A stretch of DNA of 64,000 nt from Nanobdellota archaeon (GTDB taxonomy: Archaea > Nanobdellota > Nanobdellia > Woesearchaeales > UBA583), in NCBI GenBank assembly GCA_048625195.1, contig JBMCRE010000001.1:5396-69395 (forward strand), in the 5' to 3' direction. Under the pieces are notes generated by a model. That model ran no database searches and was not told where the DNA came from. It was given only the letters and a program-made list of their open reading frames with translations. Shown one piece after another: positions 1,305-47,132 of this stretch (position 1 is its first letter; every line of letters begins with the position of its first letter). Position numbers and translations under genes: made by a program.

Positions 1305-1501
1305 TTTATTTTTAAAATTATATAATTTCTATATTATTGTAGGTAACTATATTGACACTAATTAATACGCATTTATAAGTTTTGGGTAGAAAAAAATAAA
1401 TTTCTTAGTACTTATTTTCAAATATTATAAAAAAAATATTGAGAAATAAATTATGATAACAATGTACATTAATATGATAAATAATTATGAGAATAAAAAA
1501 G

Positions 1502-3373: not shown

Positions 3374-3509
3374 TATAATAATAAGATAATGTAAAGATTT
3401 TATAAAATTATTGATATTGATTTGATTTTTAAAGAAAATAACATATTTAAATATATTTTATTTGATTTTAATTAGATTAAAGATTTTATTAATTAATTTA
3501 AATTAAGTA

Positions 3510-3695
3510 CTAATATAATTCTAAAATCTCAGCACTAACTGCTGCTTTTCCACCTCTTGGTACAGCAATAAGTTCATTGCAATCTTTGTTTAAACAATAT
3601 ACTTTAGTAGATGCTCTACCAAATATAACCTGTTCGTTACCACATTTATGGCATTTAATTTTAATAAATCCTGATTTTTTTTTGCTATTATCCAT
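3510..3695 (-). CDS. rps27e: Ribosomal protein S27e (C4 zinc ribbon)
   Basis: IKCHKCGNEQVIFGRASTKVYCLNKDCNELIAVPRGGKA matches the S27e CxxC..CxxC / P.GGKA signature. Confidence 0.8.
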   Translation of the reverse strand: MDNSKKKSGFIKIKCHKCGNEQVIFGRASTKVYCLNKDCNELIAVPRGGKAAVSAEILELY

Positions 3696-3696
3696 T

Positions 3697-4098
3697 TTAT
3701 CTGTATGATTTTTGTCTCTTTGATCTTGCTTTTGAATTTCCTGGTTTATACATTTCTTTAAATCTAGTATCTGTTACTAATAGACTTCTATCGTATTCTA
3801 ACATTTTTTTCTTTAAATTGTCATCTTGAGTGATTTCAATTAATGCTTTTGCAATTGCTTGCCTTATAGCATCTACTTGTGAATTTTGACCTCCACCTAA
3901 TACATTAACTTTTATGTCATATTTGTTTTGAGAATCTGCTAATATTAGTGGTTCGTTAAGTTTTAATTGTAATAAGTTATTACTAACATAAGAGTTATGT
4001 TTTTGATTGTTAATATAAAATTCTCCTTTTCCTTTTTTTAAAACTGCTCTTGCAACTGCTGTTTTTCTTCTTCCTGTTTTTAATACTGCCTTTACCAT
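3697..4098 (-). CDS. rps9: Ribosomal protein S9 (uS9)
   Basis: GGGQNSQVDAIRQAIAKAL core and C-terminal ...KPGNSKARSKRQKSYR tail. Position after L13 as in archaeal operons. Confidence 0.85.
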   Translation of the reverse strand: MVKAVLKTGRRKTAVARAVLKKGKGEFYINNQKHNSYVSNNLLQLKLNEPLILADSQNKYDIKVNVLGGGQNSQVDAIRQAIAKALIEITQDDNLKKKMLEYDRSLLVTDTRFKEMYKPGNSKARSKRQKSYR

Positions 4099-4099
4099 T

Positions 4100-4552
4100 T
4101 TATTTTGACTTATTGTATCCTAATTTTTGACTGATATCTCCAACTTTAGTATAATAAAATACTGAATCATTATTTATTTTCACATTATCAAAATTTGCTT
4201 TTTGAGCATTAATTAGTGTACTAGGAGTTGAGTTATAACATTTGAGTCTTTTAAATGCTTCTGCACCTCTTTTATTTTTGTAAGGAAGCATATTTCGAAA
4301 TGCTCTTTTTACAATATCAGCAGGGCTTCTTGAATAATAAGGTCCTTGTTTGATAACTTTATTTGTTAATTTATTTTTATATTTTTCAAATAAATAATTT
4401 TTTCTTCCTAGTATAACAATATCTTTACAATTTACAATTTTGATATTTTCTCCTAATAGTAATTTTTTTGATATTTCACTTGCTAGTCTGCCTAGTATTA
4501 GATCTGTACCATCTATGATTGTTATATTTTCATCTTTAATTTCTTTTTTCAT
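4100..4552 (-). CDS. rpl13: Ribosomal protein L13 (uL13)
   Basis: IIDGTDLILGRLASEISKKLLLGENIKIVNCKDIVILG is the L13 N-terminal signature. Confidence 0.85.
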   Translation of the reverse strand: MKKEIKDENITIIDGTDLILGRLASEISKKLLLGENIKIVNCKDIVILGRKNYLFEKYKNKLTNKVIKQGPYYSRSPADIVKRAFRNMLPYKNKRGAEAFKRLKCYNSTPSTLINAQKANFDNVKINNDSVFYYTKVGDISQKLGYNKSK

Positions 4553-4563
4553 TTTTAATACCT

Positions 4564-5157
4564 CTACAATTGTTCCTCTAATTTTGTTATTTTGTCTATG
4601 ATTATCTCAATTGCCTTATTATATATTACTTTTGGCTCTAATTGCCCAAAAGGTTCTATAATTAATTCTAGTTTGTCATCTGTTTCTTGTAGATAAGAAT
4701 GTGCTGGTGACCATTTTGCATGTTCTTTTCCTTGTCCTAATATTGCTCTTAAATTTAAATCTAATTGATGATTTTTAAAAAGTTTAGTAATAGGAATTTC
4801 ATTATCTACTGGAACAATTTGAGGATCATCAGATTTTATAGAACAAGAATAAACAAATCCTGGTTCATTTTGTTTTAATGACATCTTAACCTCGCACATT
4901 GCACAGCCTACTCCACCACAACTACATTGACTTTTGAAATTATAGCTTTGAATATCTGTAGTTAATGGAATTAATCCTAACCTTTGTGCAATAGTTTCAT
5001 CATAAAGAGGAGATTCATTTTTAATAACTTCTACTTCTTCAATTGCAATTGTTGGAACTTCTTCTAATATAATTCTTCGAATTGAATTTACAATAGTATT
5101 GTATCCTTTTTCAAATGTAATAAATGCTTTGTTATTTTTTTGAGTGAATTCGACCAT
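4564..5157 (-). CDS. rpoD: DNA-directed RNA polymerase subunit D (Rpo3)
   Basis: Position between S11 and L13 as in the archaeal S13-S4-S11-RpoD operon. Cys cluster CSCGGVGCAMCEV typical of the archaeal Rpo3 Fe-S module. N-terminal dimerisation-domain similarity. Confidence 0.8.
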   Translation of the reverse strand: MVEFTQKNNKAFITFEKGYNTIVNSIRRIILEEVPTIAIEEVEVIKNESPLYDETIAQRLGLIPLTTDIQSYNFKSQCSCGGVGCAMCEVKMSLKQNEPGFVYSCSIKSDDPQIVPVDNEIPITKLFKNHQLDLNLRAILGQGKEHAKWSPAHSYLQETDDKLELIIEPFGQLEPKVIYNKAIEIIIDKITKLEEQL

Positions 5158-5165
5158 TTTGGATT

Positions 5166-5603
5166 TTAAACTCTTCTACCTCTTCTACCTGATTTTTTTC
5201 TACAACTATCATGTGGTACTGGTGTTACATCTTCAATTCTTCCTAACTTTATACCATTTCTTGTAAGCATTCTAATTGCAGCTTGAGCTCCTGGACCAGG
5301 TGTCATTGGTCCATTGTGTCCACCAACACCTCTTAATTTGACATATAAGGCATTAATGTTTGATTTTTTACATCCTTCTGCAATCTCTTTTGCAGCTGCC
5401 ATAGCTACATTAGGTGTTGCTCTTAGTCTGTCTGACTTGGAAACCATACCACCTGTGACTTTTACAAGCGTTTCTGAACCAGTTATGTCTGTAACATGAA
5501 GATGAGTATTGTTATATGACGAATAAATATGTATAATCCCCCAGTTTAATATATTTTCTTTATTTTCTTGTTTTTGTTCTTCTTTTTGTGCCATTTTATT
5601 CAA
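5166..5603 (-). CDS. rps11: Ribosomal protein S11 (uS11)
   Basis: [18 protein letters not shown]...[16 protein letters not shown]...[23 protein letters not shown]. The true start is probably the second Met (5594), which removes the 8-nt overlap with S4. Confidence 0.85.
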
Positions 5604-6231
5604 TTACCTCAGAAATTTCTTCATCATCAAGTTTAGCTTCTTTTTTGTCAAAATCTTCTTCTTTTTTGTTTAGAGGAATTTTTTCCATTTCTTCAACTTC
5701 AACCATACCACCACTTGCTAAAACCCTTTCAGGATGACTTTCATTATTTAGAGAAGATTCATTTTTAAATTTAATTAGAGGTTCTTCTAATAGTGAGACT
5801 GTATATGAGGGTGAATTTACACATTGATTCCCAACTAGAACATGTCCATGTACAATAAATTGTCTTGATTGTGCTGGAGTTCTTGCCATTTTGTTTTTAT
5901 ATAAGATATTAGATAATCTTCTATCTAAAATATCTCTTATTTGAATATCTAAAACTTCATCTAGAGATTGGGCGCTTGGGTCTAAAAAGCCTAGAGTTTT
6001 TAATTTTTCAATGAATTGTTTTGCTTCATCACTTTGTTTGGTTTGTATATTAGTATTTAACGATTTTGCAATTTTTTTGTAATTAGATAATTTTAATTCT
6101 ACTTTTCTTATAGCTTTTTTATTCTTTAACGAATAGTCATTCATTAAAATTGATTCGTCTTCAATAGTTTTTTTATCCCATCTTTTTTTATGAGATATGA
6201 ATTTTTTCCTATGTTTTTTTGCTAATCCCAT
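5596..6231 (-). CDS. rps4: Ribosomal protein S4 (uS4, archaeal S4P type), with an acidic C-terminal tail
   Basis: [41 protein letters not shown] (S4 RNA-binding domain). N-terminus MG.AKKHRKK like archaeal S4. C-terminal ~40 aa E/D/K-rich extension. Confidence 0.85.
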
Positions 6232-6233
6232 TT

Positions 6234-6737
6234 TTATTTGTTACCATTTAGTTTTTTTGATTTCATGGCTGCATACATTTTATTTTTTCTAAAGTTTGAC
6301 TTTGTTCTTTGACCTCTTAGAGTAACTCCAGCTTTTCTTCTTTGAGATTTATATGTTTTAAGCTTTGCAAATCTTCTTGTATTTTGTAATAATAAGAAGT
6401 CTATATCTTTAGATACATAGTGCAGATCTTCTCCAGTTTCTAATTCTTTTCTATTGTTTAATAACCATGTAGGTATTCCTACTTTTTTTGGATTACTTAA
6501 AAAAGATTCAATTTTTTCTACTTCTTCATCTGTTAGAGTATATATCTTTCTAGTTTTGTCAAATTTTAAAACATTACATAAAGCATTTGATAACATTACA
6601 TTAACGCCTTTAATTTGTGTAAAACCATACAGTAATGAATAAGTACCTTTAATGTCAGTATTAATAATTCTTATTTGTTCTACTTGTGATTCTTGAGTTT
6701 TAGCCATCTTGCTAATTATAGAAAAATCAAAAAGCAT
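6234..6737 (-). CDS. rps13: Ribosomal protein S13 (uS13)
   Basis: VRIINTDIKGTYSLLYGFTQIKGVN...KFDKTRKIYTLTDEEVEKI. First gene of the minus-strand r-protein/RpoD operon. Confidence 0.85.
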   Translation of the reverse strand: MLFDFSIISKMAKTQESQVEQIRIINTDIKGTYSLLYGFTQIKGVNVMLSNALCNVLKFDKTRKIYTLTDEEVEKIESFLSNPKKVGIPTWLLNNRKELETGEDLHYVSKDIDFLLLQNTRRFAKLKTYKSQRRKAGVTLRGQRTKSNFRKNKMYAAMKSKKLNGNK

Positions 6738-6760
6738 TTATAAAGATTTGCTAGTCTATT

Positions 6761-6770
6761 CCTTTATATA
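6761..6770 (-). promoter_or_regulatory. Putative archaeal TATA box (tatataaagg on the minus strand) 24-33 nt upstream of the S13 ATG; implies a leaderless or near-leaderless operon transcript
   Basis: The only TATA-like element at the expected -26/-30 spacing relative to the first operon codon. No Shine-Dalgarno-like sequence. Confidence 0.3.
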
Positions 6771-7082
6771 CTGTTTGTTACTACTACTAGTGTATTTGAA
6801 TCAATATAAAACTTAAATCATTTATCTTTGTTAATATTTAATTTTACAAATCTTTTTATGATATAGTAATGGTTTTTATAATAATAATAAGTGTTGTAAT
6901 AAATGTTTTCATATAATTATATAACTACATAATTTAGTAATAAAAAATGAAAAATGAAAATGTTTAAAAACTTCACATTAAATTTTATTCTTATTAATAC
7001 TTTATTAATATTTATATATTAATTAGATTTTATATATTAATATTAATTAAATTAATTATTAATAACTTGTGAAATTATACAA

Positions 7083-7721
7083 ATGAAAGAATCTGATGAG
7101 AAAAATTTTAATAATAAAAAAAATTATTACAAAAATAATGATAATGTATCTAATCAAAATTTTCGTAAAATAAGTAATAAATTTGATTTTCAAAATAAAT
7201 ATTTTTATATTCTATTTAGATATTTATTATTAATATTTTTAATATTTTTTTTTCAAACTGATTTTTTTAATAATATATTAATTGTAATTTTTACATTTAT
7301 ATCTTATTTTCTTTTAAAGAATGTTACACAAGTTGAATTATTAGAAAATTCCTTATTAATTAATAATGAGTATTTATTTTTGATAGTGGAGGAATGTATT
7401 GCACCTAGTGCTTATATATTTATTAGTTTAATATTTTTATCGATTCCAATTGAGATGAAAAATATCTTTAACATTTTAATCAGGTCAATTATATTATTTT
7501 CTTTTATTAATTTTATAAGGATTTTTCTTTTGATGTTAACACATATATACTATGGTGTTATTTTATTTGAAAAACTGCATATGATATTTTATGAAATAGT
7601 GAGTGGAATTATATTATTTTTTATTATAATTTATTATTTAAAAAAAGAAAAAATTAGAAAAAAATATCCTTTTATTTCAGATATTCAAAGGTTAATTTTT
7701 TCTTTTAGGAAAAAAGATTAA
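7083..7721 (+). CDS. Polytopic membrane protein with exosortase/archaeosortase-like motifs (alternatively CPBP/Abi-like)
   Basis: About 6 predicted TM helices. LIVEECIAPSAY resembles the exosortase active-site Cys region (..EACSG..S). INFIRIFLL resembles the conserved N-x-x-R-I helix. FEKLH could alternatively be the CPBP F-x-x-x-H motif. N/K-rich N-terminal tail. Confidence 0.35.
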   Translation: MKESDEKNFNNKKNYYKNNDNVSNQNFRKISNKFDFQNKYFYILFRYLLLIFLIFFFQTDFFNNILIVIFTFISYFLLKNVTQVELLENSLLINNEYLFLIVEECIAPSAYIFISLIFLSIPIEMKNIFNILIRSIILFSFINFIRIFLLMLTHIYYGVILFEKLHMIFYEIVSGIILFFIIIYYLKKEKIRKKYPFISDIQRLIFSFRKKD

Positions 7722-8205: not shown

Positions 8206-8700
8206 TCAAGGATATAAATCAGTTTTGTACGATGTCATTCCTCTTGGCATGGTAAATTTTATAGGAACATTAGTGTTTTTCTTAATATATCTGGTATTTA
8301 TTATTACATAATCATTTTCATTGATTTCATATCCTAGAGGTAATTGAAATTTTAATTCAATTACATCATCTGTATTTATATAGTTTTGTTTGAATTTTTT
8401 TCCTTTGTTGCTATAATTATAAGTGTAAGTATTTTGATCTAGTGTATTACCTGCTTTATAAGTGATAGTTTGAATTTTAGATGTTTGTAATTCAATTATT
8501 ATATCTTCAAAAAAAATTTCTACTGAGTCTTTATCTAATCTTGCCATAATACTAATATTATCTTGGCCTCCATCTATCTTGCCATTTTGAGTACCTACAA
8601 CATATACCCCAAATATTTCAAAATCACTTGAAAATTGATTATTCACTTGTTTTTTCGCATTTAGACCATCTTGTACTAAAATAAAACCAAATTCAATCAT
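8206..8700 (-). CDS. Hypothetical protein; possibly the body of a class III-signal surface protein separated from its signal peptide by a frameshift in a T6 run
   Basis: 164-aa ORF with no motif. Immediately upstream (8783..8706) is a 26-aa peptide MIKSKKAGHDSLILFMVALILSVFIF ending in TAA. One extra T in the TTTTTT run would fuse the two in frame. Confidence 0.4.
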   Translation of the reverse strand: MIEFGFILVQDGLNAKKQVNNQFSSDFEIFGVYVVGTQNGKIDGGQDNISIMARLDKDSVEIFFEDIIIELQTSKIQTITYKAGNTLDQNTYTYNYSNKGKKFKQNYINTDDVIELKFQLPLGYEINENDYVIINTRYIKKNTNVPIKFTMPRGMTSYKTDLYP

Positions 8701-8702
8701 TG

Positions 8703-8783
8703 TTAAAAAATAAAGACTGACAAAATTAAAGCAACCATAAATAGAATTAAACTATCATGACCTGCTTTTTTAGATTTAATCAT
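8703..8783 (-). pseudogene. 26-aa signal-peptide-like mini-ORF (MIKSKKAGHDSLILFMVALILSVFIF*); likely a detached N-terminus of the 8206..8700 gene (frameshift or phase variation)
   Basis: Read directly from the sequence. KKA + hydrophobic stretch is identical in style to the N-termini of the 11226, 8925 and 33259 genes. The stop lies 2 nt before the ATG at 8700. Confidence 0.3.
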
Positions 8784-8924
8784 AATTTTTTTAAAAATTG
8801 TTATTATTAACCTAATTTGTATTAATTAATTAGAAGTTACATGCTTATTATTATCATAAAAAATATAAAAAGTATAAGCTGGTATTTTTAATTAATTAAA
8901 ATTTCAATATTATAAAAATCAAGT

Positions 8925-11210
8925 TTAATTCCTTGAGTAAGTTGCACTATGTTTAACATCATTATATTCATTATTTTTGTTACCATACATGTCTATTGGT
9001 ATGATATTTTTATATGTTATAGTTTCCATGTTTGTTGTAAGAACTAATAAATTACCGTCTTTTCCAACTATTTTTTGTATTGTTTTTGGTTGTTTATCAT
9101 TATATGTAATTACTAATTCTCCTTCTAATTCAAGTATATTATTATCACTATTAATTTCATTCCAATTTAAATATAATTTTTCATTTCCATTTTCATTTTT
9201 TTTTCTAATTCCATTTACTTTTATAGAGTTATATGGATGTGGAGGTTTTTTATCTTTTATAGTAATTGCAGAAAATTTTGCAGGTTGAATTATATTATCT
9301 GTGTTATCTTTTATTAATTGATAAAATGTCAAATCATCATTAACTATCTTTTTAAAATTCCACTGTTTTTTTAGTGGTTTTATTAATCCATGTTTTTGAT
9401 TATTCATAGGTATGATGTAGATGTCATAATCTTTTTCGTTTTCTAAAATTAAATTATTAGTAAAAGTTTGTGATTCAATTATATGATTATATTTATTATC
9501 ATTTTGAATTTTAACATCAGATGTTACAATAAGATTAATATCTTGAGGTTCTTTTAGACTATCTGAACCATCATAATAATGACATTTATTAGATGTTGTA
9601 TCAATACATTGTTCACTGATTAATTCTCCTTTTTCTAAGATATATAAATCATAATGATTAAAAGAAGGATCTTCATAATCTTCAATATTTAAAATTAATG
9701 TGTTTTGATATCCTTCTTCTTCTCCTGTTATAGTATTATGATTATTTATTGTTATTGGGGATGGGCCAAATAAGTTTTGAGGAATTATTTTTTTAGTTTT
9801 TCCTTCAATATTTTCTACATTATAATTTAAATTTTGATCTGTTGCAAAAACATAAACAAAAATAGGTTTTTCTTCTAATAATTCAAATGTTTCTGTATCT
9901 TTATTGTATATTTGAGATAACTTTATTTTTTTAATCTCTTTATCATTGGCGTCTTTTATAAATGTTTTATCACTAGTGGTAATTAAAGTAATTGGTTTAT
10001 TAAAATCTTTAGAAAAAAAGTATTGATTATTATTTTCACTAATACCTGTATTTTCAAAGTCGGTTGGGATTTTATTTTTTCGTAATAAGTTAGTAATTTG
10101 ATCATAATTACTACTAGATTTATCAAAAAAGTTTTCATAAGAGTATAATATTACATAACTTTTGACTTTATCATAAAATCTAGGTTTTTCAATATGTAAT
10201 TCTATTGTTTTATCTAAACCTTGAAAGTGATTCAAGTTAAAATTTAAATAACTATATGGAATATTGTCTTTTAGAATAACACCAAAATTTAATTCCTCTA
10301 TATTGTTATTATTGCTAACTATAAAATTTAATCCATAATAATTGTCACTTTGTATGTCTAAATATTTTATTTCTAAATTATATTCTTGTAAAATTTTATC
10401 ATGAAAATTATTTAAATAATTCTCAGTTATATTTGTTATACATTTTAATTCGGTATTTTCATTGTTTTCTAAACATTTAGGTATTTCTTCTTCAATTTTG
10501 GTTGATAATTGTGGAATTAAATTATTTAATCCAATTAACAATTGTGGATATAAACCTAATGTGTGATTTGTATTGTAATTTAATTCTAAGTTTAAATCTC
10601 CTATTTTCGTTTGTTCTTTATAAGATGTTTTTATTTGTAAATCAATAGAATCAATCTCTTTGTCATAGTCTATATTAATTATTGGATTGCTATTGATATT
10701 TTGTTCTTTTAATCCATTTTGTAGATTTGTAAAAAGTCTATCTTCTAAAAAATATTTATATTTTTCTATAAATTCATCATTAAATTTAGCAGAGCAATTA
10801 CTATAATGGCTGTCATTATTTTGCATATTTACATCAAGGTTTTTTTCATTGTACCATAATTCTATTCCTTGTATTTTACAACCTAAATAATTACTATCAT
10901 CTCCTCCTTGAGTCCTTTTTGATAAATCATTTAGACTTAATCCTAAAGTTTTTGCAAAATCTTTTTTAGCAGTGTTTATTGTTTTAATGGTTTCTTCTTT
11001 TTTGTAAAAATTTTCAGCAGGAATTTTTGCATTAATATTGTCTACAACTAGTATGGTAGTATTATAATCTAAATCTTTTTTTGTAACATTAACAGGTAAG
11101 ATTAAAGTTAAGATTAGAAATATAAATAAAATCAAAATTACAGGAGTTATCATTGTTAAAAATCCAATTGCTTTTTTATTGTGAATCTTGTGATTAATTG
11201 TTGTTTTCAT
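8925..11210 (-). CDS. Large (761 aa) N-terminally anchored surface protein with class III-like signal (NKKA|IGFLTMITPVILILF...)
   Basis: Single N-terminal hydrophobic segment preceded by KK-A. The remainder is N/Y/T/D-rich and has several Cys pairs (extracellular-like). Tightly packed (15 nt) after the 183-aa pilin-like gene. Confidence 0.5.
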   Translation of the reverse strand: MKTTINHKIHNKKAIGFLTMITPVILILFIFLILTLILPVNVTKKDLDYNTTILVVDNINAKIPAENFYKKEETIKTINTAKKDFAKTLGLSLNDLSKRTQGGDDSNYLGCKIQGIELWYNEKNLDVNMQNNDSHYSNCSAKFNDEFIEKYKYFLEDRLFTNLQNGLKEQNINSNPIINIDYDKEIDSIDLQIKTSYKEQTKIGDLNLELNYNTNHTLGLYPQLLIGLNNLIPQLSTKIEEEIPKCLENNENTELKCITNITENYLNNFHDKILQEYNLEIKYLDIQSDNYYGLNFIVSNNNNIEELNFGVILKDNIPYSYLNFNLNHFQGLDKTIELHIEKPRFYDKVKSYVILYSYENFFDKSSSNYDQITNLLRKNKIPTDFENTGISENNNQYFFSKDFNKPITLITTSDKTFIKDANDKEIKKIKLSQIYNKDTETFELLEEKPIFVYVFATDQNLNYNVENIEGKTKKIIPQNLFGPSPITINNHNTITGEEEGYQNTLILNIEDYEDPSFNHYDLYILEKGELISEQCIDTTSNKCHYYDGSDSLKEPQDINLIVTSDVKIQNDNKYNHIIESQTFTNNLILENEKDYDIYIIPMNNQKHGLIKPLKKQWNFKKIVNDDLTFYQLIKDNTDNIIQPAKFSAITIKDKKPPHPYNSIKVNGIRKKNENGNEKLYLNWNEINSDNNILELEGELVITYNDKQPKTIQKIVGKDGNLLVLTTNMETITYKNIIPIDMYGNKNNEYNDVKHSATYSRN

Positions 11211-11225
11211 TTTGATTATAATAGA

Positions 11226-11777
11226 TTAGTATTGTTTGAATTTTATATATGCTTTTTTATTATCATTATTAGTTTTTAGGTAAAAAAAATAATTGTTTCT
11301 TCTTATTGATGCATCTAGATTTGAGTATTGCTCTATATCATCATAATATATTAATAATAATTTGTCTTTATTGATTTCATCAGATGAGAATCTTTGATAA
11401 TAATCAACTGGAGATAAATCTTGTGTATCTTGTAAATAAGCATATTTTTGTAGATAATTTTCACGTATTTTATTAACAATTGCTTCACTTTCTTCTGTGT
11501 TAATTGCAATGAGATCCTTAACAAAAAAAGTTTGATTTTCATCTAAATTTAATTCTAACAAGTCCTTTTTCTCTATTTTAGTCATTAAAAATGAATGGAC
11601 AAAGACAGCAGGAAATTGATAATTTAATTCAGGAGCATATTCATTAAACTGTTGTTTGCTATCTAATGATAAGTTATATACAAAATATGAAATAATACCC
11701 ACACAAACAATTGCAATAATTGCAATTATAAATTCAACGTCCATTCCAAAAGCTTTTTTGTTTTTTTTAATTTTCAT
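11226..11777 (-). CDS. Pilin-like protein with class III (prepilin-type) signal peptide (MKIKKNKKA|FGMDVEFIIAIIAIV...)
   Basis: Basic n-region, a K-A cleavage-site-like motif, an acidic residue early in the hydrophobic h-region (DVEF), then a ~150-aa soluble domain. 6 nt downstream of the 572-aa gene. Confidence 0.45.
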   Translation of the reverse strand: MKIKKNKKAFGMDVEFIIAIIAIVCVGIISYFVYNLSLDSKQQFNEYAPELNYQFPAVFVHSFLMTKIEKKDLLELNLDENQTFFVKDLIAINTEESEAIVNKIRENYLQKYAYLQDTQDLSPVDYYQRFSSDEINKDKLLLIYYDDIEQYSNLDASIRRNNYFFYLKTNNDNKKAYIKFKQY

Positions 11778-11783
11778 TTTGGC

Positions 11784-13502
11784 TCAATATTGCATTAATC
11801 CATGTGTTTTTTTATATATAGAATAAAGTTTCCATACATCATCTATATTGTCGATTTTTATTTTTTTATGTTTATGAGCTTTTGAAGATGATATTGGTTG
11901 TTCTTTTCTTTGTGGTAAATTAAATTGAGGCATGAGTGGTTTAAATAATTCATAAAACCCTTTGAAAGGTCCTAAAAACATAGTCATATCTATATCTTCT
12001 TTAGAATATTTGTTTTGATTATTACTGTAAGTAGTATTTTGATTATTGCTGAAGTTAAGGTTTTCTTTGTTATCAAAATAATTAGTATAATATAATAATT
12101 CTTCTTTTATTGTTGTTAGCTCTGAGATAAAATTTTCTAATAAATCTAAATTTTCATCTTTGATTTGTTGTCTGTAACTTGCAATTTCAAATAAGTTCCA
12201 ACAAAAACCTTTAAATTTTATTGAGTTTTTCATCCAAGGTACTTGTTGTATACCTTGTTGAGATTGTATTGCTTCTGTTCTTCTAATTTGATTAAATTCT
12301 AATTGTATACATGAAAATTTTGATAAATCATCTTTGTCTAATAATTTTTGTTGTAAATTTTGAAATTCTTTATGAGTGATTTCTTTCTTGTCGCTTGGAT
12401 AAAATATGTATTTTCCTTGATTTTCTCCTGCAATAAAACCACTTTTTCCTTTGAATTTTCCTTGAAATATTTCTTTCTCTATATATAATCCATATTTTGT
12501 AAATTCTAAGGCATTAAATTTATATCCTCCTCTTTCAAATCCTTTTATTCCTAAAGTTTTAACATACCATATTGAGGAATCAAATAATGAAACTAAGTCT
12601 GGATGCTCTGCTTCAAACCCTCTATGTAAATTATCATACCCAAGGCGTTCAGTTCGTTTTTTTATTTCCATTAATAAAGGTTTCATTATATTGATATGCA
12701 TTTGAATTGTGGAATACATTTGTTTTAGACTTGTAACTTTTATTTTGAATGTTGTTTGAGTATCTTTTATAGCTGAAGGTAGCCAATAATAAAATCTATA
12801 CATCATTCTTGCGGCAGCTTCTTTTGCATCTTTTGTAATATCTATTGAATAAATATTTTCATCGAGTTGTTCTTTTAATGTTTTATTAGTTTGAAATGGG
12901 TCGTCTAGAGATGTTCCAAAAAATAATTGTGGAAGTAATGTAAAATCTAGTCCTTGTTCGGCTGAAGATCTTTGCATTTGCCATAGTCTTCCTCCATCTA
13001 CTTCATTTACCCATTTATCTTTTAGATGCGAGATTGCTTCATTTCTTTCATCTCTTGCTTTTTTTAATTCTTTATTGTCATTATTTGTCCCTTTAGACTT
13101 TAATTCTTGAACAATTTTATCATTTTGAGTAACTTGGTTTATCCATTTATAATAAAAATCTGCCTGTTTAACTTCCTTGAGTAATGGGAATAAATGAACT
13201 TTTATTAGTTGAATTATTTGATTCAAATTTTCTTGAAATGCTCTGATGGTTCCTCCCTTTATTTGTCTAAGCTGCATTCCCAGTTGAGAATTTTCTGTAA
13301 AATGATGGTAATCTTCTAATTTTAACGTTGTATATCCTTTTCCTGTATAATATGCAAAATTAAAAAACCAATAATAACTTTCTGTTATGTCTTCGTTATA
13401 ACCTTCAAATCTGATTTCTTTATCAATAACAGCATTACTTCTAGTGGCATTTTTTATCATTTCATCTGCCTTACTTTGAAAATTTAAAGAATCATCATAC
13501 AT
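11784..13502 (-). CDS. Hypothetical cytoplasmic protein (572 aa), first gene of the surface-protein operon
   Basis: No TM or signal. No Walker motif (GKGYTT is not a P-loop). No recognisable domain. Co-directional and tightly linked with 11226 and 8925. Confidence 0.45.
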   Translation of the reverse strand: MYDDSLNFQSKADEMIKNATRSNAVIDKEIRFEGYNEDITESYYWFFNFAYYTGKGYTTLKLEDYHHFTENSQLGMQLRQIKGGTIRAFQENLNQIIQLIKVHLFPLLKEVKQADFYYKWINQVTQNDKIVQELKSKGTNNDNKELKKARDERNEAISHLKDKWVNEVDGGRLWQMQRSSAEQGLDFTLLPQLFFGTSLDDPFQTNKTLKEQLDENIYSIDITKDAKEAAARMMYRFYYWLPSAIKDTQTTFKIKVTSLKQMYSTIQMHINIMKPLLMEIKKRTERLGYDNLHRGFEAEHPDLVSLFDSSIWYVKTLGIKGFERGGYKFNALEFTKYGLYIEKEIFQGKFKGKSGFIAGENQGKYIFYPSDKKEITHKEFQNLQQKLLDKDDLSKFSCIQLEFNQIRRTEAIQSQQGIQQVPWMKNSIKFKGFCWNLFEIASYRQQIKDENLDLLENFISELTTIKEELLYYTNYFDNKENLNFSNNQNTTYSNNQNKYSKEDIDMTMFLGPFKGFYELFKPLMPQFNLPQRKEQPISSSKAHKHKKIKIDNIDDVWKLYSIYKKTHGLMQY

Positions 13503-13619: not shown

Positions 13620-14441
13620 ATGAGTTTTAATATTTTTACAGATGGTGCATCAAGAGGAAATCCAGGAAAAGCTGGAATTGGTATTGTTATATATAAAAAT
13701 GATAAATGTATAGAAGAAATTAGTGATTTTATTGGTAATAAAACTAATAATGAAGCAGAGTATTTTGCAATAATTAGAGCATTAGAAAAATTATTAGAAT
13801 TAAATAGTAATAATAAAGCAAATTTGTTTAGTGATTCCGAATTATTAATTAAACAAATTAATGGGATTTATAAGGTTAAATCAAAAAATCTTATTGAATT
13901 AAATAACAAAGTAAGATTATTATTAAAAAAATTAGATGTGAATTTTGTGTGGATACCAAGAGAAGAAAATAAAATAGCTGATTTATTAGCAAATAAAGGA
14001 ATTGATATTAATAAAAGTAGTAATAAAGGCAATGTAAGTCAATTTGATAGATTTAAAAATAAACTTAATAATCAAGATTCAATCTTAAATGAATTATTAA
14101 TTGATAAATCTTTTTTTGGAAAAATTAATTGTTTTAAAATTCAATTGAATAATAATTTAGAAGTTTATTTTCATATGGGTTTATTAAAAAATAATAAGTG
14201 GGATTGGAAAAAAGTTAAAATGTCTGATGTTGAACTTGGACAAATAATTCATTTATTAAAGCATAATGAAGGTAAAGTAGCTTTTTTTCATAAATTTAAT
14301 CAAAATAAAACTCAAATTTGGTGTAATAAAGCTATTGATAGGTTTTCTATAAAAATTGATGAATATTCTAAGAATTTTACGATAGGAGAGTTTGAAGCTT
14401 TAAATATTATTATTGAAGAATGTATTAGAAGAAGGATTTGA
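13620..14441 (+). CDS. rnhA: Ribonuclease HI with ~140-aa C-terminal extension
   Basis: DGASRGNPGKAGIGIVI (first catalytic Asp), TNNEAEYFAIIRAL (catalytic Glu), SDSELLIKQINGIYK (catalytic Asp), WIPREENKIADLLAN (catalytic Asp). The extra C-terminal domain has no known motif. Confidence 0.8.
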   Translation: MSFNIFTDGASRGNPGKAGIGIVIYKNDKCIEEISDFIGNKTNNEAEYFAIIRALEKLLELNSNNKANLFSDSELLIKQINGIYKVKSKNLIELNNKVRLLLKKLDVNFVWIPREENKIADLLANKGIDINKSSNKGNVSQFDRFKNKLNNQDSILNELLIDKSFFGKINCFKIQLNNNLEVYFHMGLLKNNKWDWKKVKMSDVELGQIIHLLKHNEGKVAFFHKFNQNKTQIWCNKAIDRFSIKIDEYSKNFTIGEFEALNIIIEECIRRRI

Positions 14442-15039: not shown

Positions 15040-15702
15040 TTAAAAATATTGTCTTATAATGTTTTCTAATAACATAGAATATTGATAAGGACTAGGGTTG
15101 TTTGAAGTATCAAAATTAAATAAAATTCCTTGTTTTGTTGTATTTTGAGCATATTGTATTTTTTCTTTTTTTTCTTTAAAAGTTAATTGGAAACTTGATT
15201 TTTGTTTAAATTCATGTTTTGAAGTTTGTTCTTGTCTTGCTCTTTGATATTGTACCTCTTTAGATACAGACATTAATAGTACATTATTTTGTGTGATTTG
15301 ATATAAATTATTTTCTGCTAAAAGAGCAGCTTCTAATAAGATTAATCCGTTTTGTATTTGGTTTACATTATGTTGTATTATATTTTTACAATTTTTTTCC
15401 ATGAATTTATTATAAAGTGTTGATTTATATTCGTCGTTAAAAATTAATTTTTGTAATTTTGTTGTGTTTATTGAACTGTCTGCAAGTAAAAGATTTGAAC
15501 GAAATAAATCTACAAGTTCTTCTCTTATGTGTAAATATTCTTTATTAGAGCTTAAAATTTGTGACCCTAATTCGTCATACGATATATGTAATGCTTGTAA
15601 TTTATATTTATTAGTTGCAATATTAACTAAAATTTTTGATGCATAACTTTTTCCTGAATATTTCTCTCCAGTGATACCAAGTAAGATTTTATTATTGAAC
15701 AT
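15040..15702 (-). CDS. P-loop nucleoside/nucleotide kinase-like protein (dephospho-CoA kinase / CoaE-like N-terminus)
   Basis: ILLGITGEKYSGKSYASKIL is a GxTGxxxSGKS Walker A at the extreme N-terminus, as in CoaE/uridine kinase-like enzymes. The rest is unassigned. Confidence 0.4.
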   Translation of the reverse strand: MFNNKILLGITGEKYSGKSYASKILVNIATNKYKLQALHISYDELGSQILSSNKEYLHIREELVDLFRSNLLLADSSINTTKLQKLIFNDEYKSTLYNKFMEKNCKNIIQHNVNQIQNGLILLEAALLAENNLYQITQNNVLLMSVSKEVQYQRARQEQTSKHEFKQKSSFQLTFKEKKEKIQYAQNTTKQGILFNFDTSNNPSPYQYSMLLENIIRQYF

Positions 15703-15989
15703 TTTTTATTGTTTTGGTAATGTATTTAATTTTAATTATCTGTTTTGAAGATTTATATCTTAATAATTAAATATATAAATTATATAAATGTATAATTAAT
15801 AAGGATTTAGATAATTTATATTATAGTATTTAAGTTTTCTTATCCTTTATTAAAACTTATTAAAAATTAAATTTTGTTTTAATTTATAAATTTAACTCAG
15901 CATTGTAAATACTATAGGAATACGACAACTATTAACTACTTTAAAATTATTGCTAATTCATATAAGAAATAGATTTATGTTTAAAATAT

Positions 15990-18900
15990 ATGAATAACAC
16001 TAGAGATGATTTTGCAAAGAAGAATAAGGGAAAACATAAAGAAAAACATCACGTTGAAATAAATAAAAAAGATGATGATTCTTTGAAAGTTAACAAGAAT
16101 ATGAACATTCTTGAAGAGAGTTTAGATATGACTAAAAAACTTAAATTAGAAATCAAAAAAATACATAGTTCTAAAGAACAGTTGAAAAAACATTTAGAAT
16201 CTTTACAAAAAAGAATAGATAAACATGAAATTTCTAAAAATATTAGTAATAAAAATGTTGATAAAGAGGATATTTCTTCAAACGTTTTATCTCATCTAAA
16301 ACAAGAGATTGAAAAGGATTTTGAACCTATTTTTGAAAAATATGATATTAATTTTGCAAAAGAAAATATTTTAAATGAAGTTAATGATACTATTGAATCT
16401 CAATTTCAAAAACTAAAGTCACAAATTGATTCTTCTAATTTTAAAGAAAAAAGATATAATACACAAAAGCTTTCTGATTTAGAAGCTAGAGTATTAGAAT
16501 CATTGAGTGAAAATAAAAAATTAAATGAAGAAATTAAAAAAATTCAAAAATCTGCAAAAAATTTAAAATTATCTCAAGAAATTGAAACAAAAATTTATGA
16601 AGTAGTTTCTAAGTTTAATAAAAAGTATTTTAAGATGCTTGATGCTAATACTATTGAAGTTGAAGAAATCAAACAAGATACTCTAAAAATTGATAAACAA
16701 ATCTCTAAAGTAAAAAAAGTGTTACAAGAAGAGTTTAAAGAAAAAAATACTGACATTGCATCTATACGATCAAAAATTACAAATTTAGAGAAAGACAATG
16801 AATCTATAAAAAAACTACTCGAACGATATGAAAATGATTTATACAATAAATCAAACCAAGAGTTTGTTAAAATAGAGAGTAAAATTCAAAAAGCATTTGA
16901 AAAAAAGTTGACTAATTATAGTGAAAAATTAAATGAGAATTTGTCAAATAAAATATTTGATTCTTTAGAAGAATTAAAAAAATTAAAATTAAATATTGAG
17001 AAACAAACTGATAAAATTAAAACTGATTTTTTAAATCAAAAAAATTCTCAAGAGGATTTTTTAATAACTAAATATAATCAAATTATAGATAATATAGAGT
17101 ATACAAAGAATAAAATTGCAGATGAGAATAAAAAAGAACTTTCATTGATTAGAGATGATGTTTTAAATCGAATAAAAGATGATGTTAAAAATAAAATTGA
17201 AAAACTAATTTTAAAATATAAGGATGAAAAATTAAATTTTGAGAATGAATTAAATTCATATAAAAATGAGCTTGAAAAGACATCTCGAAAATCTATTAAC
17301 GATATTTTAAAGAAAACTCAAGAATTAAAATTTTCAAAACAAGATATTGATAAATTTGTTGATAATATAAAAGAAGAGGTAGTAGAGCAAAATAAGAAAT
17401 TTGAAGAATTCAAAAATAATTTAATGCTTGAAAATAAAGAAAATAAATCTAACTTAATTGATGAAATTTCTAAAAAAGAGGCAAAAAGTAAGGCAGAAAT
17501 TAATGATTTAATTAATAGTACTAAAGAAGAGATTTCTTCACAAATTGTATCTAATAATGAATTTTTAAACAAAATAAATGTTGATAATAAAAAGAATAAA
17601 GAAGAAATATTTGAACAAATAGATTCTAAATTTTTAAAAACAAACGAACAATATAATCAAGAATTTAACTCTCAAATGCTTTTATTTAATAGAAAAATTG
17701 AAGAAAAAGAACAAGAATTTGAAAATAAATTGCAAGAAATTGAAAATCAAGAAAATAAAATTATTGAAGAATTGAATGAATATAAAACCAATCTTGGAGA
17801 ACTAACTAAAAATTATATTGATCAATTAGATAAAGAATTACAAAATTTAAAAAGAACTGAAGCTAATTTCGAAGATGAAGTTCATGCTTATTCAATAAAA
17901 ATTGATGAATTAACTAAAATCAAAAAATTAGAATTAACTGATCATACTCAAGAGTTACAAAAAGAGTTAAAATATATTTTAGAGGAACAAAAAAATAAAT
18001 TTGAAGTTAATGAAAATAATTTTAAAGAAATTTTTAGAGAAAAAATAAATAATTTAAATGATACAATTAATCATAGATTAGATAAAATAGAAAAAACAAT
18101 TTATGATAAAAGTTTAGAAAAAATTGAAAAAAAAATATCTAAAGAACTTGAAATTTTTAAAACCTATGAGCAAACAATTGAATTAAAAGAATCAGAATTA
18201 AGCAAAAAAATTGATTCAATAAATGATGAACATGAACTTATTATGGCTGACATAGAAGTTGCTAAAAATACTTTAAAAGATAAGATAGAAGAAAAACTAA
18301 ATCAAACAGATAAAGAAATAAAAAATAAGTTTTTAGATTATGATTCGGATTTTTCTAATTTTAAACATTTAATTGTTGATGAAATTGAGGACTTTATAAA
18401 AGAGATTGATACTAAATTTATAAACTATGACTCATCATTGCAAAAATTTAAGACAGCTATTATAGATGAAGTTGAAGGTTTTGTTAAACAAATTCATCAA
18501 GATACAACAAGTAAAACTCAAAAAGTAGAAAGTACAATGACAAAGCTTAACTTTACAAATACTCAAATTAATGAGACATTTTCAAAATTGAAAAACTTTG
18601 AAGAAATTTTTAATAATCAAATTGACGGATTAAAATTACAAATAAAAAATAATGAAGAGAAGATAAATCAATTAAATTTAGATACTGCAAAAGAATATTC
18701 AAATAAAAATATTTTGTATGATATTTCAGTTCCAAAAATGTCTAACAATCAGGATGATATTAATAGTGAAATAGAAAAATTAAGACTTGAAATTCAAAAT
18801 AATAAAAAAAAGATTAATAATATCGATTCAAATTATTATGTAGATAATTATCAAAATAGAGGTGATTCGAATTTAGAATCTTTAGGATTTGATATTAAGA

Positions 18901-19250: not shown

Positions 19251-19278
19251 TTTATAATTTTTTAACTTTTATCTAATT

Positions 19279-19941
19279 TTACTTGGATTTTTGATCCCAA
19301 CTGTTAAAATATACCATGTTTTTTGTTGGTATTTTTTTTACTGTTGGGTTCTCTAAAGGATATCCTATTGGAATAATTGCATCTATATTTAAGTGAGGAG
19401 GAACATTGAAAATGGATTTTAAAACGTTATTGTCACCACATTCTACCCAGCATGCACCTAAATTGTAAAAGTGAGTAGTCATTATGATATTTTCAATTAA
19501 TGCTGCGGTATTTTGAATAGAATATGTTTTTCCATATTCTGGATATACATTAATTATTTCATTATCATCTCTTACTATAACTAAACAATATGGTGCATCT
19601 GATATCCAATATTGCTGTAGAGCTGCTTGTGCAGCTTTATATTTAGTTTCTTGATTGTCTACAACTATTATTTTTGTGTTTTGTATATTACCTGCACACG
19701 GAGCATTTAGTCCAGATTCTATGATTGTATGAATTATTTTGTAATCAATTTGTTTGTTTGAAAATTTTCTAATACTTCTTCTTGTTTTGAATTTTTCAAT
19801 ACATTGTTCTTCAAAAGATTTTTTTAATTTCTCATTTTCTTGTCTTAGTTGTTTTATTTCTTCTTTTGCTGTTATCGAATTAGATTTTTTACTAAATATG
19901 TTTTGGGGTTTTAATAGTATTTTTTGTATTTTTTCTTTCAT
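19279..19941 (-). CDS. Nitroreductase-family (FMN-dependent NAD(P)H oxidoreductase) protein with ~55-aa N-terminal coiled-coil extension
   Basis: RRSIRKFSNKQIDYKIIHTIIESGLNAPCAGNIQNTKIIVV matches the nitroreductase N-terminal FMN-binding region. C-terminal ..IIPIGYP. Confidence 0.7.
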   Translation of the reverse strand: MKEKIQKILLKPQNIFSKKSNSITAKEEIKQLRQENEKLKKSFEEQCIEKFKTRRSIRKFSNKQIDYKIIHTIIESGLNAPCAGNIQNTKIIVVDNQETKYKAAQAALQQYWISDAPYCLVIVRDDNEIINVYPEYGKTYSIQNTAALIENIIMTTHFYNLGACWVECGDNNVLKSIFNVPPHLNIDAIIPIGYPLENPTVKKIPTKNMVYFNSWDQKSK

Positions 19942-31267: not shown

Positions 31268-33265
31268 TTAATTAAATATTGGATCATAACTCTTATCTTT
31301 TTTAGCTAAGTTTTGAACATATTCAAAAAAGTCTAAATAATCATCTTCTTGTATTTGATAAATAGAACCAGGAATAACAAATTGTACTTTGTTTCCTAAA
31401 TTAACATTAGGAGTCCAGTTTTCTTTTTCATAAAATCCTCTTAATTCATTATTTGAGTCCATATAAAAAATACTTAAATTATATTTAACATTGTTTAAAT
31501 CTAAAAATTCTAATTTATCCATAAATCCTTCATCTGTTGGCCAGAATACTGTACTTTCAAAATCATGTTTTTTATTTTCTAAAGTTAAGTAAATAGAACC
31601 ATCTGACTTATCTAATACTCGTTTTCCTGAACCTGTTTCTCTATATTTTATTAAAAAAGTGCTTGCACTAACTTGAAATGTTTTTTTAGGAATTAATTGT
31701 AATTCTATGTCGTTATCTCCATAAAACACTTCTCTTCCCAGCAAACTATCATCAGTATCTATTCTTTTTTCTGTTGTATGATAACCACTTTTTTGAGCAA
31801 TAATTTGTCCTTGAGTACAATAAGGAAAGTTAGTTTGTAATCTTGCATGGGATTGATAATTAGGTTTTTTAATAGTTCCCATATCACATTTTACATTAAT
31901 ACATTTATAACTTATGTTAACATTTGATAAATAATTATCATTAGTGTCTCTTGCAGTTACATATAAAGGATATTTTTTACTTTGATTTGAACAATAATTA
32001 TCTTGATTAAATGTTGAAGGTTCAGGTAATAATATATTTTTTCCTGTATCTTTGGGTTCATTATTTTTAATTTTGACTCTTAGAGGAAATTGAAAAAAGT
32101 ATTGATTTCCATTTTCATTATAATCTGTTAATTTAATAATTAAATCATAATCCATCTCGTATAGATGATGATATACTTGAATACAAGGAATTGGAATCTG
32201 TGTTCCTAAATCTACCTCCATCAACATTGATTTTACTATGTTCCCTGAACTAGGAGTAACTTCAAAGGTTCTAAAAGAATCCCTTTGAAAAAAACCATCT
32301 CTATTATTTACTTGAGTTGATGGTAATAAAACATTTACATCATAATTTTCAAAAGTTTTTTTTGGATTAATTAAAGGAAATGTATAGAAGTTATCATAAT
32401 ATGCTCTACCTTCCTTACTAGTATATTCATCATTAAAAGTTAAATCATATAGCTCTTTTTTTGGATAAGTTCCTATAAATTGCAAATATTTGAAATTATT
32501 ATTATTTAGATTTATAACATTGTTTTTTATTTGAGGAACAGTCCATATCCTTCTTCCACAACTAAATGTCATTCCTTCTGTTGGAACAGAGTCTTGTGAA
32601 GAATAATCATTTGCACTTCTAATTTGATCTAAAGTTAATTCTTCAAATAAATATGTTTGAGATTCTAAATTGTATATCTCAACTGCAAGTTTGTATAAGT
32701 CTCCTAATCTTAAGTTTGGAATATTTATATTAAATTCTGAAACAGTAATAAAATTTTCATCTTTATATTCTTTTATTTTTATAGGATAATTAGTCTCTAT
32801 CATAACATTGTGATCGTTGATTGAGGTATCTACAAAAAAATCACCATCATGTGTTATCATATAAAATTCTTCTAAAGTTTTTAAGTTATGAGTAATACAG
32901 CTTAAGCTTTCTGAGGTTATATATTCTTCTAATTCATTTTCCATAAAAGCAATAGTTGGGATATCACCTCTTTGAGTATCCCAGTTAGGAATTTTAAAAC
33001 CAAAATCTGTATGTGCACGAGGATCTTTATCTATAAATATGGGTATATTAATATAACCACCTTGTGTACCTAATAAGAAAAGCCCCCTTTGAGATGCAGA
33101 CTCTATACAGTCTTCTACAATTTGAGAAACTTCATTTTTCATTTTATCATCTTTAGATTGCCATAATGAAAAATCATCTGTCATAAAAAAGAACATTGTA
33201 ATAATAATTAACACTATTCCTATAATTATAAAAATACTAATTTGGTTTTTTTGATTTTTTAACAT
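31268..33265 (-). CDS. Large (665 aa) N-terminally anchored surface protein, class III-like signal (MLKNQKNQ|ISIFIIIGIVLII...)
   Basis: Single N-terminal TM. The body is Y/N/D/T-rich with several Cys (CIT.., CGRR, CIQV, CSNQ, CINVKC, YCTQG). Overlaps by 7 nt with the upstream 133-aa pilin-like gene. Confidence 0.5.
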   Translation of the reverse strand: MLKNQKNQISIFIIIGIVLIIITMFFFMTDDFSLWQSKDDKMKNEVSQIVEDCIESASQRGLFLLGTQGGYINIPIFIDKDPRAHTDFGFKIPNWDTQRGDIPTIAFMENELEEYITSESLSCITHNLKTLEEFYMITHDGDFFVDTSINDHNVMIETNYPIKIKEYKDENFITVSEFNINIPNLRLGDLYKLAVEIYNLESQTYLFEELTLDQIRSANDYSSQDSVPTEGMTFSCGRRIWTVPQIKNNVINLNNNNFKYLQFIGTYPKKELYDLTFNDEYTSKEGRAYYDNFYTFPLINPKKTFENYDVNVLLPSTQVNNRDGFFQRDSFRTFEVTPSSGNIVKSMLMEVDLGTQIPIPCIQVYHHLYEMDYDLIIKLTDYNENGNQYFFQFPLRVKIKNNEPKDTGKNILLPEPSTFNQDNYCSNQSKKYPLYVTARDTNDNYLSNVNISYKCINVKCDMGTIKKPNYQSHARLQTNFPYCTQGQIIAQKSGYHTTEKRIDTDDSLLGREVFYGDNDIELQLIPKKTFQVSASTFLIKYRETGSGKRVLDKSDGSIYLTLENKKHDFESTVFWPTDEGFMDKLEFLDLNNVKYNLSIFYMDSNNELRGFYEKENWTPNVNLGNKVQFVIPGSIYQIQEDDYLDFFEYVQNLAKKDKSYDPIFN

Positions 33266-33660
33266 TTCATTAACCTCAATGAATTTATTTGTACTGACTT
33301 ACCATAACATAAAAATTTATTACCTTGCAAATCTTGATAATAAGGATATAAGACGAATTTAGGGTTATCATTAACGCTGAAACTCATACCATCTGTTTTA
33401 GTTGCAGGAATACTAAAAAGTTTATTATTCTCGATGTTAGTTTGAAAGCTCATTACACTATTTCCCTTATTTCTTATTTCAATATATACTGAATTATCTC
33501 TTAAACAATTTTTTGTTACTTCAAAATCATAATCTTTACAATTAGGATGATCTTCTTTGAAAAATGTTGCTAATGTACTTAAAATTAAAGTTGTCATTAA
33601 TAAAGATATAATAACAATAATAACAAAATATGTAGCTAAGGCTTTCTTGTTTGTTTTCAT
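33259..33660 (-). CDS. Pilin-like protein with class III-type signal peptide (MKTNKKA|LATYFVIIVIISLLMTTLIL...)
   Basis: Basic n-region + KKA + 25-aa hydrophobic stretch, then a ~100-aa domain with 4 Cys. Confidence 0.45.
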   Translation of the reverse strand: MKTNKKALATYFVIIVIISLLMTTLILSTLATFFKEDHPNCKDYDFEVTKNCLRDNSVYIEIRNKGNSVMSFQTNIENNKLFSIPATKTDGMSFSVNDNPKFVLYPYYQDLQGNKFLCYGKSVQINSLRLMKC

Positions 33661-47063: not shown

Positions 47064-47132
47064 TTTTTTTAATAATAATATTATTATATCTTTTTATTTA
47101 TAAACTTTTTGCTTGTCTTCACTAATAAATAA

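Follow-up and report, generated by a model that had tools for sequence, protein, structure and literature searches.

A conserved three-gene cassette for candidate prepilin-type surface proteins in Woesearchaeota-type DPANN archaea

Introduction

Woesearchaeota-type DPANN archaea are uncultivated and probably dependent on cell contact with their hosts, and we know of no description of their contact machinery. The question raised by locus A, a run of minus-strand genes in a 64,000-nucleotide stretch of DNA (contig JBMCRE010000001.1, positions 5,396 to 69,395; this whole stretch is called the window), is whether a surface structure of this kind is encoded there. An earlier note on the window had taken the locus for one operon of pilin-like proteins which, jointly with two genes at 31268-33660 (locus B), would form a dedicated adhesive structure with its machinery lying elsewhere or being novel. 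The present analysis revealed that locus A is made of two separate things: a cassette of three genes, g1, g2 and g3, and an independent archaellin-family pilin gene, g4, lying 141 nucleotides (nt) downstream. One clade of Woesearchaeota-type DPANN archaea has kept the cassette together as a unit, and the g2 and g3 products are, on balance, best regarded as prepilin-type surface proteins.

The minus-strand open reading frames (ORFs) claimed for the locus were all found at their positions (Table 1). The spacing of 6-15 nt claimed for four genes held for g1-g2 (6 nt) and g2-g3 (15 nt), and failed for the gap between g3 and the 26-amino-acid (aa) ORF with which g4 begins, the 141 nt given above. 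The G+C content across the window was 19-29%. Pfam scans, which covered 45 window ORFs, revealed archaeal housekeeping genes (Elp3, ABCE1/RLI and ribosomal proteins) with the bacterial-type genes LigA and DnaK alongside. The named sources of g1 homologues were Candidatus Woesearchaeota, Nanoarchaeota or Nanoarchaeia, and from the archaeal housekeeping genes and these names the window is judged to be that of a DPANN archaeon of the Woesearchaeota type.

Conservation of the cassette

Related loci were gathered in three ways: three homologues were looked up, the GTDB species were scanned with one genome for each, and metagenomes were scanned as well. In all, 22 distinct loci were examined besides the window's own. 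The order g1-g2-g3 was found at every one of these Woesearchaeota/Nanoarchaeota loci (22/22), so that the synteny proposed for checking in related DPANN genomes is indeed kept. Throughout the related loci g1 lies 6-20 nt upstream of g2; the g2 orthologue (190-215 aa) thus begins a few nt after g1 and is followed by the g3 orthologue (400-790 aa), and the genes flanking the cassette vary from locus to locus. No counterpart of g4, of the locus B proteins or of a neighbouring sortase-like gene was seen at the 22 loci. The view of five proteins as one dedicated structure was therefore given up, as only g1-g2-g3 forms a conserved unit. The cassette was also considered as a mobile element or provirus and this was rejected, since it is single-copy, its housekeeping flanks differ among genomes and there were no viral hits.

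Two side observations were made at the related loci. At L015 a 139-aa gene without Pfam match (6727-7146) lies directly after g3 and has a prepilin-like start, NNNRA/VYNIVTISLLLVV (here and below the slash marks the proposed cleavage position). Some of the cassette-bearing metagenome-assembled genomes (L010, L005, L008, L013, L019 and L021) carry the labels 'Bdellovibrionales bacterium' or 'uncultured Methanosarcinales archaeon'; an error in the labelling or binning of DPANN contigs is the probable cause.

Table 1. Positions of the locus A and locus B features in the window
Feature	Position	Strand	Description
g1	11784..13502	-	572 aa, no hydrophobic segment; first gene of conserved cassette
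g2	11226..11777	-	183 aa, one N-terminal hydrophobic segment; prepilin-like candidate
g2 putative class III leader	11751..11777	-	codons 1-9, MKIKKNKKA; proposed cleavage after Ala9
g3	8925..11210	-	761 aa, one N-terminal hydrophobic segment; prepilin-like large surface protein candidate
g3 putative class III leader	11169..11210	-	codons 1-14, MKTTINHKIHNKKA; proposed cleavage after Ala14
g4 N-terminal fragment	8703..8783	-	26 aa; leader MIKSKKA and H-domain; ends at frameshift-made TAA
g4 C-terminal fragment	8206..8700	-	164 aa; body of archaellin/pilin-family protein
T6 run, g4 frame change	8705..8710	-	read from sequence
Locus B small protein	33259..33660	-	133 aa; MKTNKKA and H-domain, four Cys; prepilin-like candidate
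Locus B large protein	31268..33265	-	665 aa; anchor MLKNQKNQ/ISIF without K-[G/A], eight Cys

N-terminal leaders of g2 and g3

Short basic leaders are present at the extreme N-terminus of g2, g3 (MKTTINHKIHNKKA), g4 and the 133-aa locus B protein. The K-K-A followed by one hydrophobic segment, as described in the earlier note, was confirmed for the 183-aa, 761-aa and 26-aa products. The same design had been assigned to both locus B proteins; it is present in the 133-aa protein and absent from the 665-aa protein, which has no K-[G/A] before its anchor, and for this reason the proteins sharing the motif are four and not five. In a Kyte-Doolittle scan, by which all hydrophobic segments were called, the single N-terminal segment was the sole membrane segment of g2, g3, the 26-aa ORF and both locus B proteins. 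The g2 leader is followed by FGMDVE, with acidic residues at +4 and +6, and the g3 leader by IGF, in both cases with the hydrophobic (H-)domain next.

The leaders of the g2 and g3 orthologues are basic, 5-27 residues long and all end in G, A or, once, S, after which about 20 hydrophobic residues follow. Of the 35 orthologues scored, 28 have K or R at -2, as have all four window proteins. The g3 sites (KG/LSF, KA/VSF, KG/ISF, KA/IGF) follow the pattern K-K-[G/A/S] and then [LIV]-[SGA]-F. In the g2 sites 3-5 mixed residues come after the leader, with E or D at about +5 in the main subfamily (KG/SLAQE, KG/MLFAE, KA/QLYQE; in the window KA/FGMDVE). This leader, M..KnKKG, is all that the two families have in common in a profile-profile comparison (hhalign, 13 columns, E 2e-4).

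The published criteria for archaeal prepilin sites are G, A or S at -1, a charged residue at -2, an H-domain and, in the EppA/bacterial type, an acidic residue at +5, with RA/LS, RA/VS and KG/QI as examples (PMC4371748). The g3 sites resemble the PibD sites RA/LS and RA/VS of that source, and the acidic residue at about +5 of g2 is like that of the EppA/bacterial type. By their residues, the predicted g2 and g3 sites fit these criteria well. The class III, prepilin-like reading of the N-termini has thereby been strengthened, as no g2 or g3 orthologue lacks the leader, the small -1 residue or the H-domain, and g4 belongs to the archaellin/pilin family.

The prepilin-type sites were scored by a rule-based scan of our own. 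A six-frame scan of the whole 64 kb for [KR][GA] within the first 30 residues, with a hydrophobic 15-mer within 8 residues after it, returned five ORFs only: g2, g3, the 26-aa ORF, the 133-aa ORF and one 42-aa ORF. The motif is thus rare in the window and concentrated in locus A and locus B. The control set consisted of 71 ORFs of at least 100 aa having an N-terminal hydrophobic segment, taken from the window and the related loci. The [KR][GA] motif stood just upstream of the segment in 32 of them, and 28 of those were g2 or g3 orthologues. Among the ORFs that are neither g2 nor g3 it was seen in only 4/36, one being directly upstream of a T2SSE/T2SSF cluster (L023) and one after g3 (L015); two of these four are likely pilins themselves. 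As a pattern of residues, the shared N-terminal design is judged to be far beyond chance. Other exported proteins of the window carry classical signals, namely a bacterial-style lipobox LSMGTGC at 45049-45801 and a Sec signal ending in LQAWSG at 45798-47063.

Bodies of g2 and g3

The predicted extracellular body of g2, of about 140 aa, comes after the H-domain and has the conserved motifs PELSYEFP..FVHSFL, Y.VKDL and NYFFYLKT. No Pfam match was obtained in 20 g2 members, and PDB searches returned no significant relative. The AF2 model of g2, for which only 11 sequences were usable, had a mean confidence (predicted local distance difference test, pLDDT) of 56. Residues 14-45 form a long N-terminal helix in it, and the body is modelled as mostly helical but with uncertainty. 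In g3 the alignment of 18 orthologues revealed three conserved Cys pairs in the predicted extracellular body and the conserved motifs LYSYENFFD and VFAVD..NY, and the family splits into long and short subfamilies. Sequence and profile searches gave no PDB relative of g3, and its 18 members had no Pfam domain, substrate-binding-protein domains included.

The g1 family

The g1 protein has 96 close homologues of 36-73% identity, all of them Woesearchaeota/Nanoarchaeota hypothetical proteins without Pfam domains. It gave no Pfam, NCBIfam or PDB sequence match, also in a PDB profile search. An exhaustive HMMER profile search of 1.84 billion cluster representatives returned 170 clusters, of which about 100 were distant full-length homologues of 450-560 aa, labelled Woesearchaeota or 'archaeon' where named. 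These share the motifs LKD.W...VEGG, LPDLFF, YLRQ.Y and a C-terminal W..Y..YKK.H...W. A beta-rich insert is present in g1 of the cassette clade and absent from the distant homologues.

The AF2 model of g1, built on 36 sequences, had a pLDDT of 72.6 and contained beta-sheet with very long helices (73-136, 224-283 and 437-473), a disordered asparagine-rich linker at about 480-537 and then a conserved C-terminal helix. Structure searches with this model gave no fold match. The description of g1 as a cytoplasmic unknown stands in so far as it has no hydrophobic segment and matches no family or fold. A role of g1 as ATPase was considered and rejected, as its GKFKGKS does not make up a Walker A motif and the protein matched no P-loop family. 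From the solitary occurrence of the distant homologues and their lack of the insert, g1 is judged to be a DPANN-wide cytoplasmic family with no recognisable fold or domain, of which one clade has acquired the insert together with the fixed association with g2 and g3.

Some further genes were noted around the distant homologues. A 560-690-aa protein with a weak match to AP_endonuc_2 (xylose-isomerase-like TIM barrel; L023 13177-15243 and L024 12078-13757) was seen in three contexts, each time at a distance of one to three genes downstream from the distant g1 homologue. The contig L024, labelled Candidatus Woesearchaeota, also encodes a 1741-aa protein (15675-20900) with the bacterial sigma-70 regions 1.2, 2, 3 and 4, which could be due to gene transfer or mis-binning.

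Search for pilus machinery

The statement that no assembly ATPase, platform protein or prepilin peptidase lies in the window was borne out. No T2SSE ATPase, T2SSF platform or A24 peptidase domain was detected in the Pfam scans of the 45 window ORFs, and tblastn with ATPase and platform proteins was in accordance with this result. The absence had been taken as a pointer to novel machinery, and this part is unsupported: in archaea the genes for pilins are mostly found apart from the machinery operons (PMC4858521), so that a lack of machinery nearby is not unusual and no sign of novelty. Earlier surveys did not identify the cognate pilins of nanoarchaeal ATPases (PMC4858521), and type-IV-filament systems are present in DPANN archaea (10.64898/2026.04.22.720090).

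A canonical type-IV-filament cluster was observed on the DPANN contig L023 (JGI 3300071326) at 344-6500. It consists of a pilin-like 249-aa protein (ETKKG/QIWISALLY), a T2SSE ATPase, an 85-aa gene and two T2SSF platform genes, and a distant g1 homologue follows 3.5 kb downstream of it. This proximity was considered as a link between g1 and pilus machinery and was set aside; it is probably a coincidence, because the related and syntenic L024 lacks the cluster.

The archaellin-family gene g4

The stop codon of the 26-aa ORF is the TAA within ...TTT ATT TTT TAA CA ATG..., and the 164-aa ORF begins 2 nt further on in another frame. The two ORFs would be fused into a protein of 192 aa if the T6 run had one more T or if the ribosome slipped by -1. 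The fused product matched Pfam Arch_flagellin (PF01917) with 36.9 bits and an E value of 6e-9 over positions 7-148, the gathering score being 29.5. The 164-aa ORF alone scored 25.3 bits over profile positions 25-148, and the 26-aa ORF contributes the N-terminal helix that is missing from it (profile positions 7-24). A second assembly of this organism, made independently (Logan; L022, SRR21542054), shows the same T6 run.

Since the fused product matches PF01917 above the gathering score, from the N-terminal helix into the body, and the T6 run is the same in L022, g4 is best understood as a single archaellin/pilin-family gene that is frameshifted in the DNA. Both ORFs listed in the earlier note are real; they are, on this evidence, halves of one gene and not separate genes, and the statement that no body belongs to a known family was wrong for g4. 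It could be a pseudogene, phase-variable or expressed through frameshifting. No relative of g4 was found at the 22 related loci or in a metagenome scan for it, and it had no PDB sequence relative. No relationship was seen between g2 and g4 (hhalign) or between the 133-aa locus B protein and g4 (BLASTP).

Interpretation

The reading that we favour, with moderate confidence, takes g2 and g3 for surface proteins of the prepilin type. Machinery encoded elsewhere would process and display them, and they would act, with g1 as cytoplasmic partner, either as a pair of minor pilin and large adhesin or in a bindosome-like manner. According to this scheme both proteins would be made with class III signals, that is, a short basic leader ending in K/R-G/A with about 20 hydrophobic residues directly after it, and would most likely be inserted N-in/C-out. 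The leader would probably be removed by a PibD/EppA-type peptidase, and a type-IV-filament ATPase and platform, all encoded elsewhere, would probably display the proteins through the retained hydrophobic helix. The g3 protein may then serve as an adhesin of modular or tip type, large and held stable by disulfides, with g2 as its small minor-pilin-like partner; alternatively, the display could take the form of a bindosome-like surface assembly. We infer for g1 a place on the cytoplasmic side as scaffold, chaperone or regulator. What the sequences show directly is the order of the genes, their conservation, the motif and topology features of the N-termini and the family of g4, whereas leader cleavage, entry into a filament, adhesion and the part played by g1 are inferences.

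Several results weigh against this scheme. No g2 or g3 member matched Pfam Class_IIIsignal or a pilin family, and the g2 model is of low confidence and mostly helical, so that it does not demonstrate the pilin alpha/beta fold. The -2 residue is uncharged (N, S, L or Q) in 7/35 orthologues. The L023 ATPase and platform proteins found nothing by tblastn in the window or in any cassette locus (6-10 kb around the cassette), and in the stretches read near the cassette no prepilin peptidase, ATPase or platform was found for any cassette-bearing genome. Distant g1 homologues are, in three contexts, without g2- or g3-like genes after them. Finally, removal of the leaders would leave no cytoplasmic part to which g1 could bind, and the tight coupling of g1 then goes unexplained.

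This coupling is the strength of a second explanation, which we hold possible though rather unlikely: g2 and g3 would be uncleaved type II (N-in) signal anchors which form a membrane-spanning complex with g1, for instance a scaffold of the envelope or a complex for division or host contact, with K-K-G as juxtamembrane docking peptide. The constant place of g1 just upstream of g2 is in accordance with it, and the conserved leaders are the sole cytoplasmic parts of g2 and g3 as well as their sole shared feature. The beta-rich insert that distinguishes the cassette-clade g1 from the solitary homologues also suits a docking partner, and pilus machinery is near none of the related loci, nor was a clear pilin fold seen in the g2 model. 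However, docking alone would not call for the -1 residue to be small in every orthologue, for K/R to stand at -2 in most of them or for g2 to have an acidic residue at about +5, and these are exactly the features of a prepilin site. The length of the leader and its sequence upstream of K-K-G vary greatly, and other DPANN have g1 homologues with neither g2 nor g3. The uncleaved anchor thus accounts better for the g1 coupling and more poorly for the site-like residues than the prepilin reading.

It is improbable that the cassette is a self-contained novel filament or host-attachment apparatus working without a canonical type-IV-filament ATPase and platform, with g1 as a novel cytoplasmic assembly factor. 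The cassette never adjoins type-IV-filament genes, all of g1, g2 and g3 are undescribed families and g1 has no fold match, which would suit such an apparatus; yet g1 has neither a nucleotide-binding motif or domain nor a membrane segment, and g3 is too large and variable for a major subunit. Archaeal pilin genes lie away from the machinery as a rule (PMC4858521), and canonical type-IV-filament clusters occur in related DPANN.

A variant to which we give equally little credence is a DPANN-specific, self-contained envelope-spanning module in which g1, as a new kind of cytoplasmic protein, would bind the K-K-G tails of the two surface proteins, and which would build or control a host-contact structure without canonical ATPase or platform. 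In it g1 would combine a fold not seen before with its disordered linker and the conserved peptide at its C-terminus.

Sec-type signal peptides cut by signal peptidase I, or a mere by-product of a lysine-rich, AT-rich proteome, are very improbable: the genome is lysine-rich with 22% G+C and a basic N-terminus before a hydrophobic stretch obeys the positive-inside rule, but G and A, rare in such a composition, are fixed at -1, the motif is seldom seen in the controls, the other exported window proteins have classical signals, and the H-domains are long (about 25-30 residues) with no A-x-A-type site after them.

Relation to known systems

The pilins PilA1-6 of Haloferax, EpdA-E of Methanococcus and AapA/B of Sulfolobus have a short basic leader ending in K/R-G/A, and some 20 hydrophobic residues after it are retained at the mature N-terminus. 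The g2 and g3 proteins share the leader and the hydrophobic stretch, with K/R at -2 in most orthologues, and the pilin genes, too, are often away from the ATPase/platform operon. The acidic residue at about +5 of g2 is similar to that of EppA substrates. The g2 and g3 proteins differ from these pilins in having bodies outside the pilin families, in the size of g3 (400-790 aa) and in the coupled cytoplasmic gene. Bindosome-type class III proteins are, as g3 is predicted to be, large extracellular proteins that use a prepilin signal for display and form no thin fibre, whereas g3 has no substrate-binding-protein domain and no bas-like ATPase/platform genes lie nearby. The archaellin family PF01917 (FlaA/B and relatives) is the relative of fused g4, which matches its profile from the N-terminal helix through the body; unlike the family members g4 is frameshifted, and the window has no fla/arl accessory genes.

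A pilin-type N-terminus on a large functional body, beside the gene for a small pilin-like partner, is known from GspK and from PilB/PilC of Streptococcus sanguinis, to which g3 is likened by analogy and not by sequence or fold. In PilM-PilN-PilO, PilM binds the short cytoplasmic tail of PilN. The layout of g1-g2-g3 is like that of this system, as a cytoplasmic gene lies just upstream of genes for bitopic proteins with very short conserved cytoplasmic N-termini; in contrast to PilM, g1 has no actin-like or other recognised fold, and neither homology nor a match to the PilN or PilO families was seen. An intracellular coiled-coil accessory protein, arCOG07564, is encoded at type IV pilus loci of halobacteria (PMC4858521) and is a precedent for a non-ATPase cytoplasmic helical protein with pilin genes. 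Compared by description, g1 is much larger and also contains beta-sheet. In kind, the cassette is probably a surface system of a type already known, but its protein families are undescribed.

Locus B and neighbouring genes

The 665-aa gene of locus B overlaps the 133-aa gene by 7 nt. In the Pfam and NCBIfam scans the 133-aa protein had no significant family match and the 665-aa protein had none.

About 480 nt from the end of locus A, at 7083-7721 (+), lies the gene of a 212-aa multi-pass membrane protein that is pacearchaeosortase-like (NCBIfam NF033505, E 1.3e-15, 57.9 bits against a cut-off of 80) and also carries the exo/archaeosortase signature TIGR04178. No C-terminal sorting signal was found in any locus A protein. 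On the other side, divergent from g1, the gene at 13620-14441 (+) encodes an RNase H domain (residues 1-128) with an unannotated C-terminal half of about 145 aa. At 15990-19250 (+) lies the gene for a 1086-aa protein with zero cysteines and without Pfam or NCBIfam match, which is kept in the second assembly L022.

Further along the window, three unannotated genes in a row (250, 421 and 281 aa; 45049-47978, minus strand) occupy a stretch slightly richer in G+C; the first carries the lipobox and the second the Sec signal named above. The 439-aa protein at 49051-50370 (+) has two stretches matching the [NiFe]-hydrogenase large subunit, the best at profile positions 1-98 of 508. The bacterial-type genes of this archaeal window are LigA with BRCT (NAD-dependent DNA ligase), PolX with PHP domain and DnaK/Hsp70, at 54778-56871 (+), 56881-58602 (-) and 62007-63878 (-). 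A 513-aa protein at 58678-60219 (-) has GGDEF diguanylate-cyclase and HD_5 (HD-GYP-like) domains; cyclic-di-GMP signalling genes are unusual in archaea.

Conclusion

The cassette holds two conserved candidate prepilin-type surface proteins, of which one is large, Cys-rich and variable, as an adhesin would be, and ties them to g1, a DPANN-wide cytoplasmic family that is unannotated and of no recognisable fold. If the favoured reading is true, the cassette would provide a handle on the attachment of DPANN archaea and the first functional context for the orphan g1 family.

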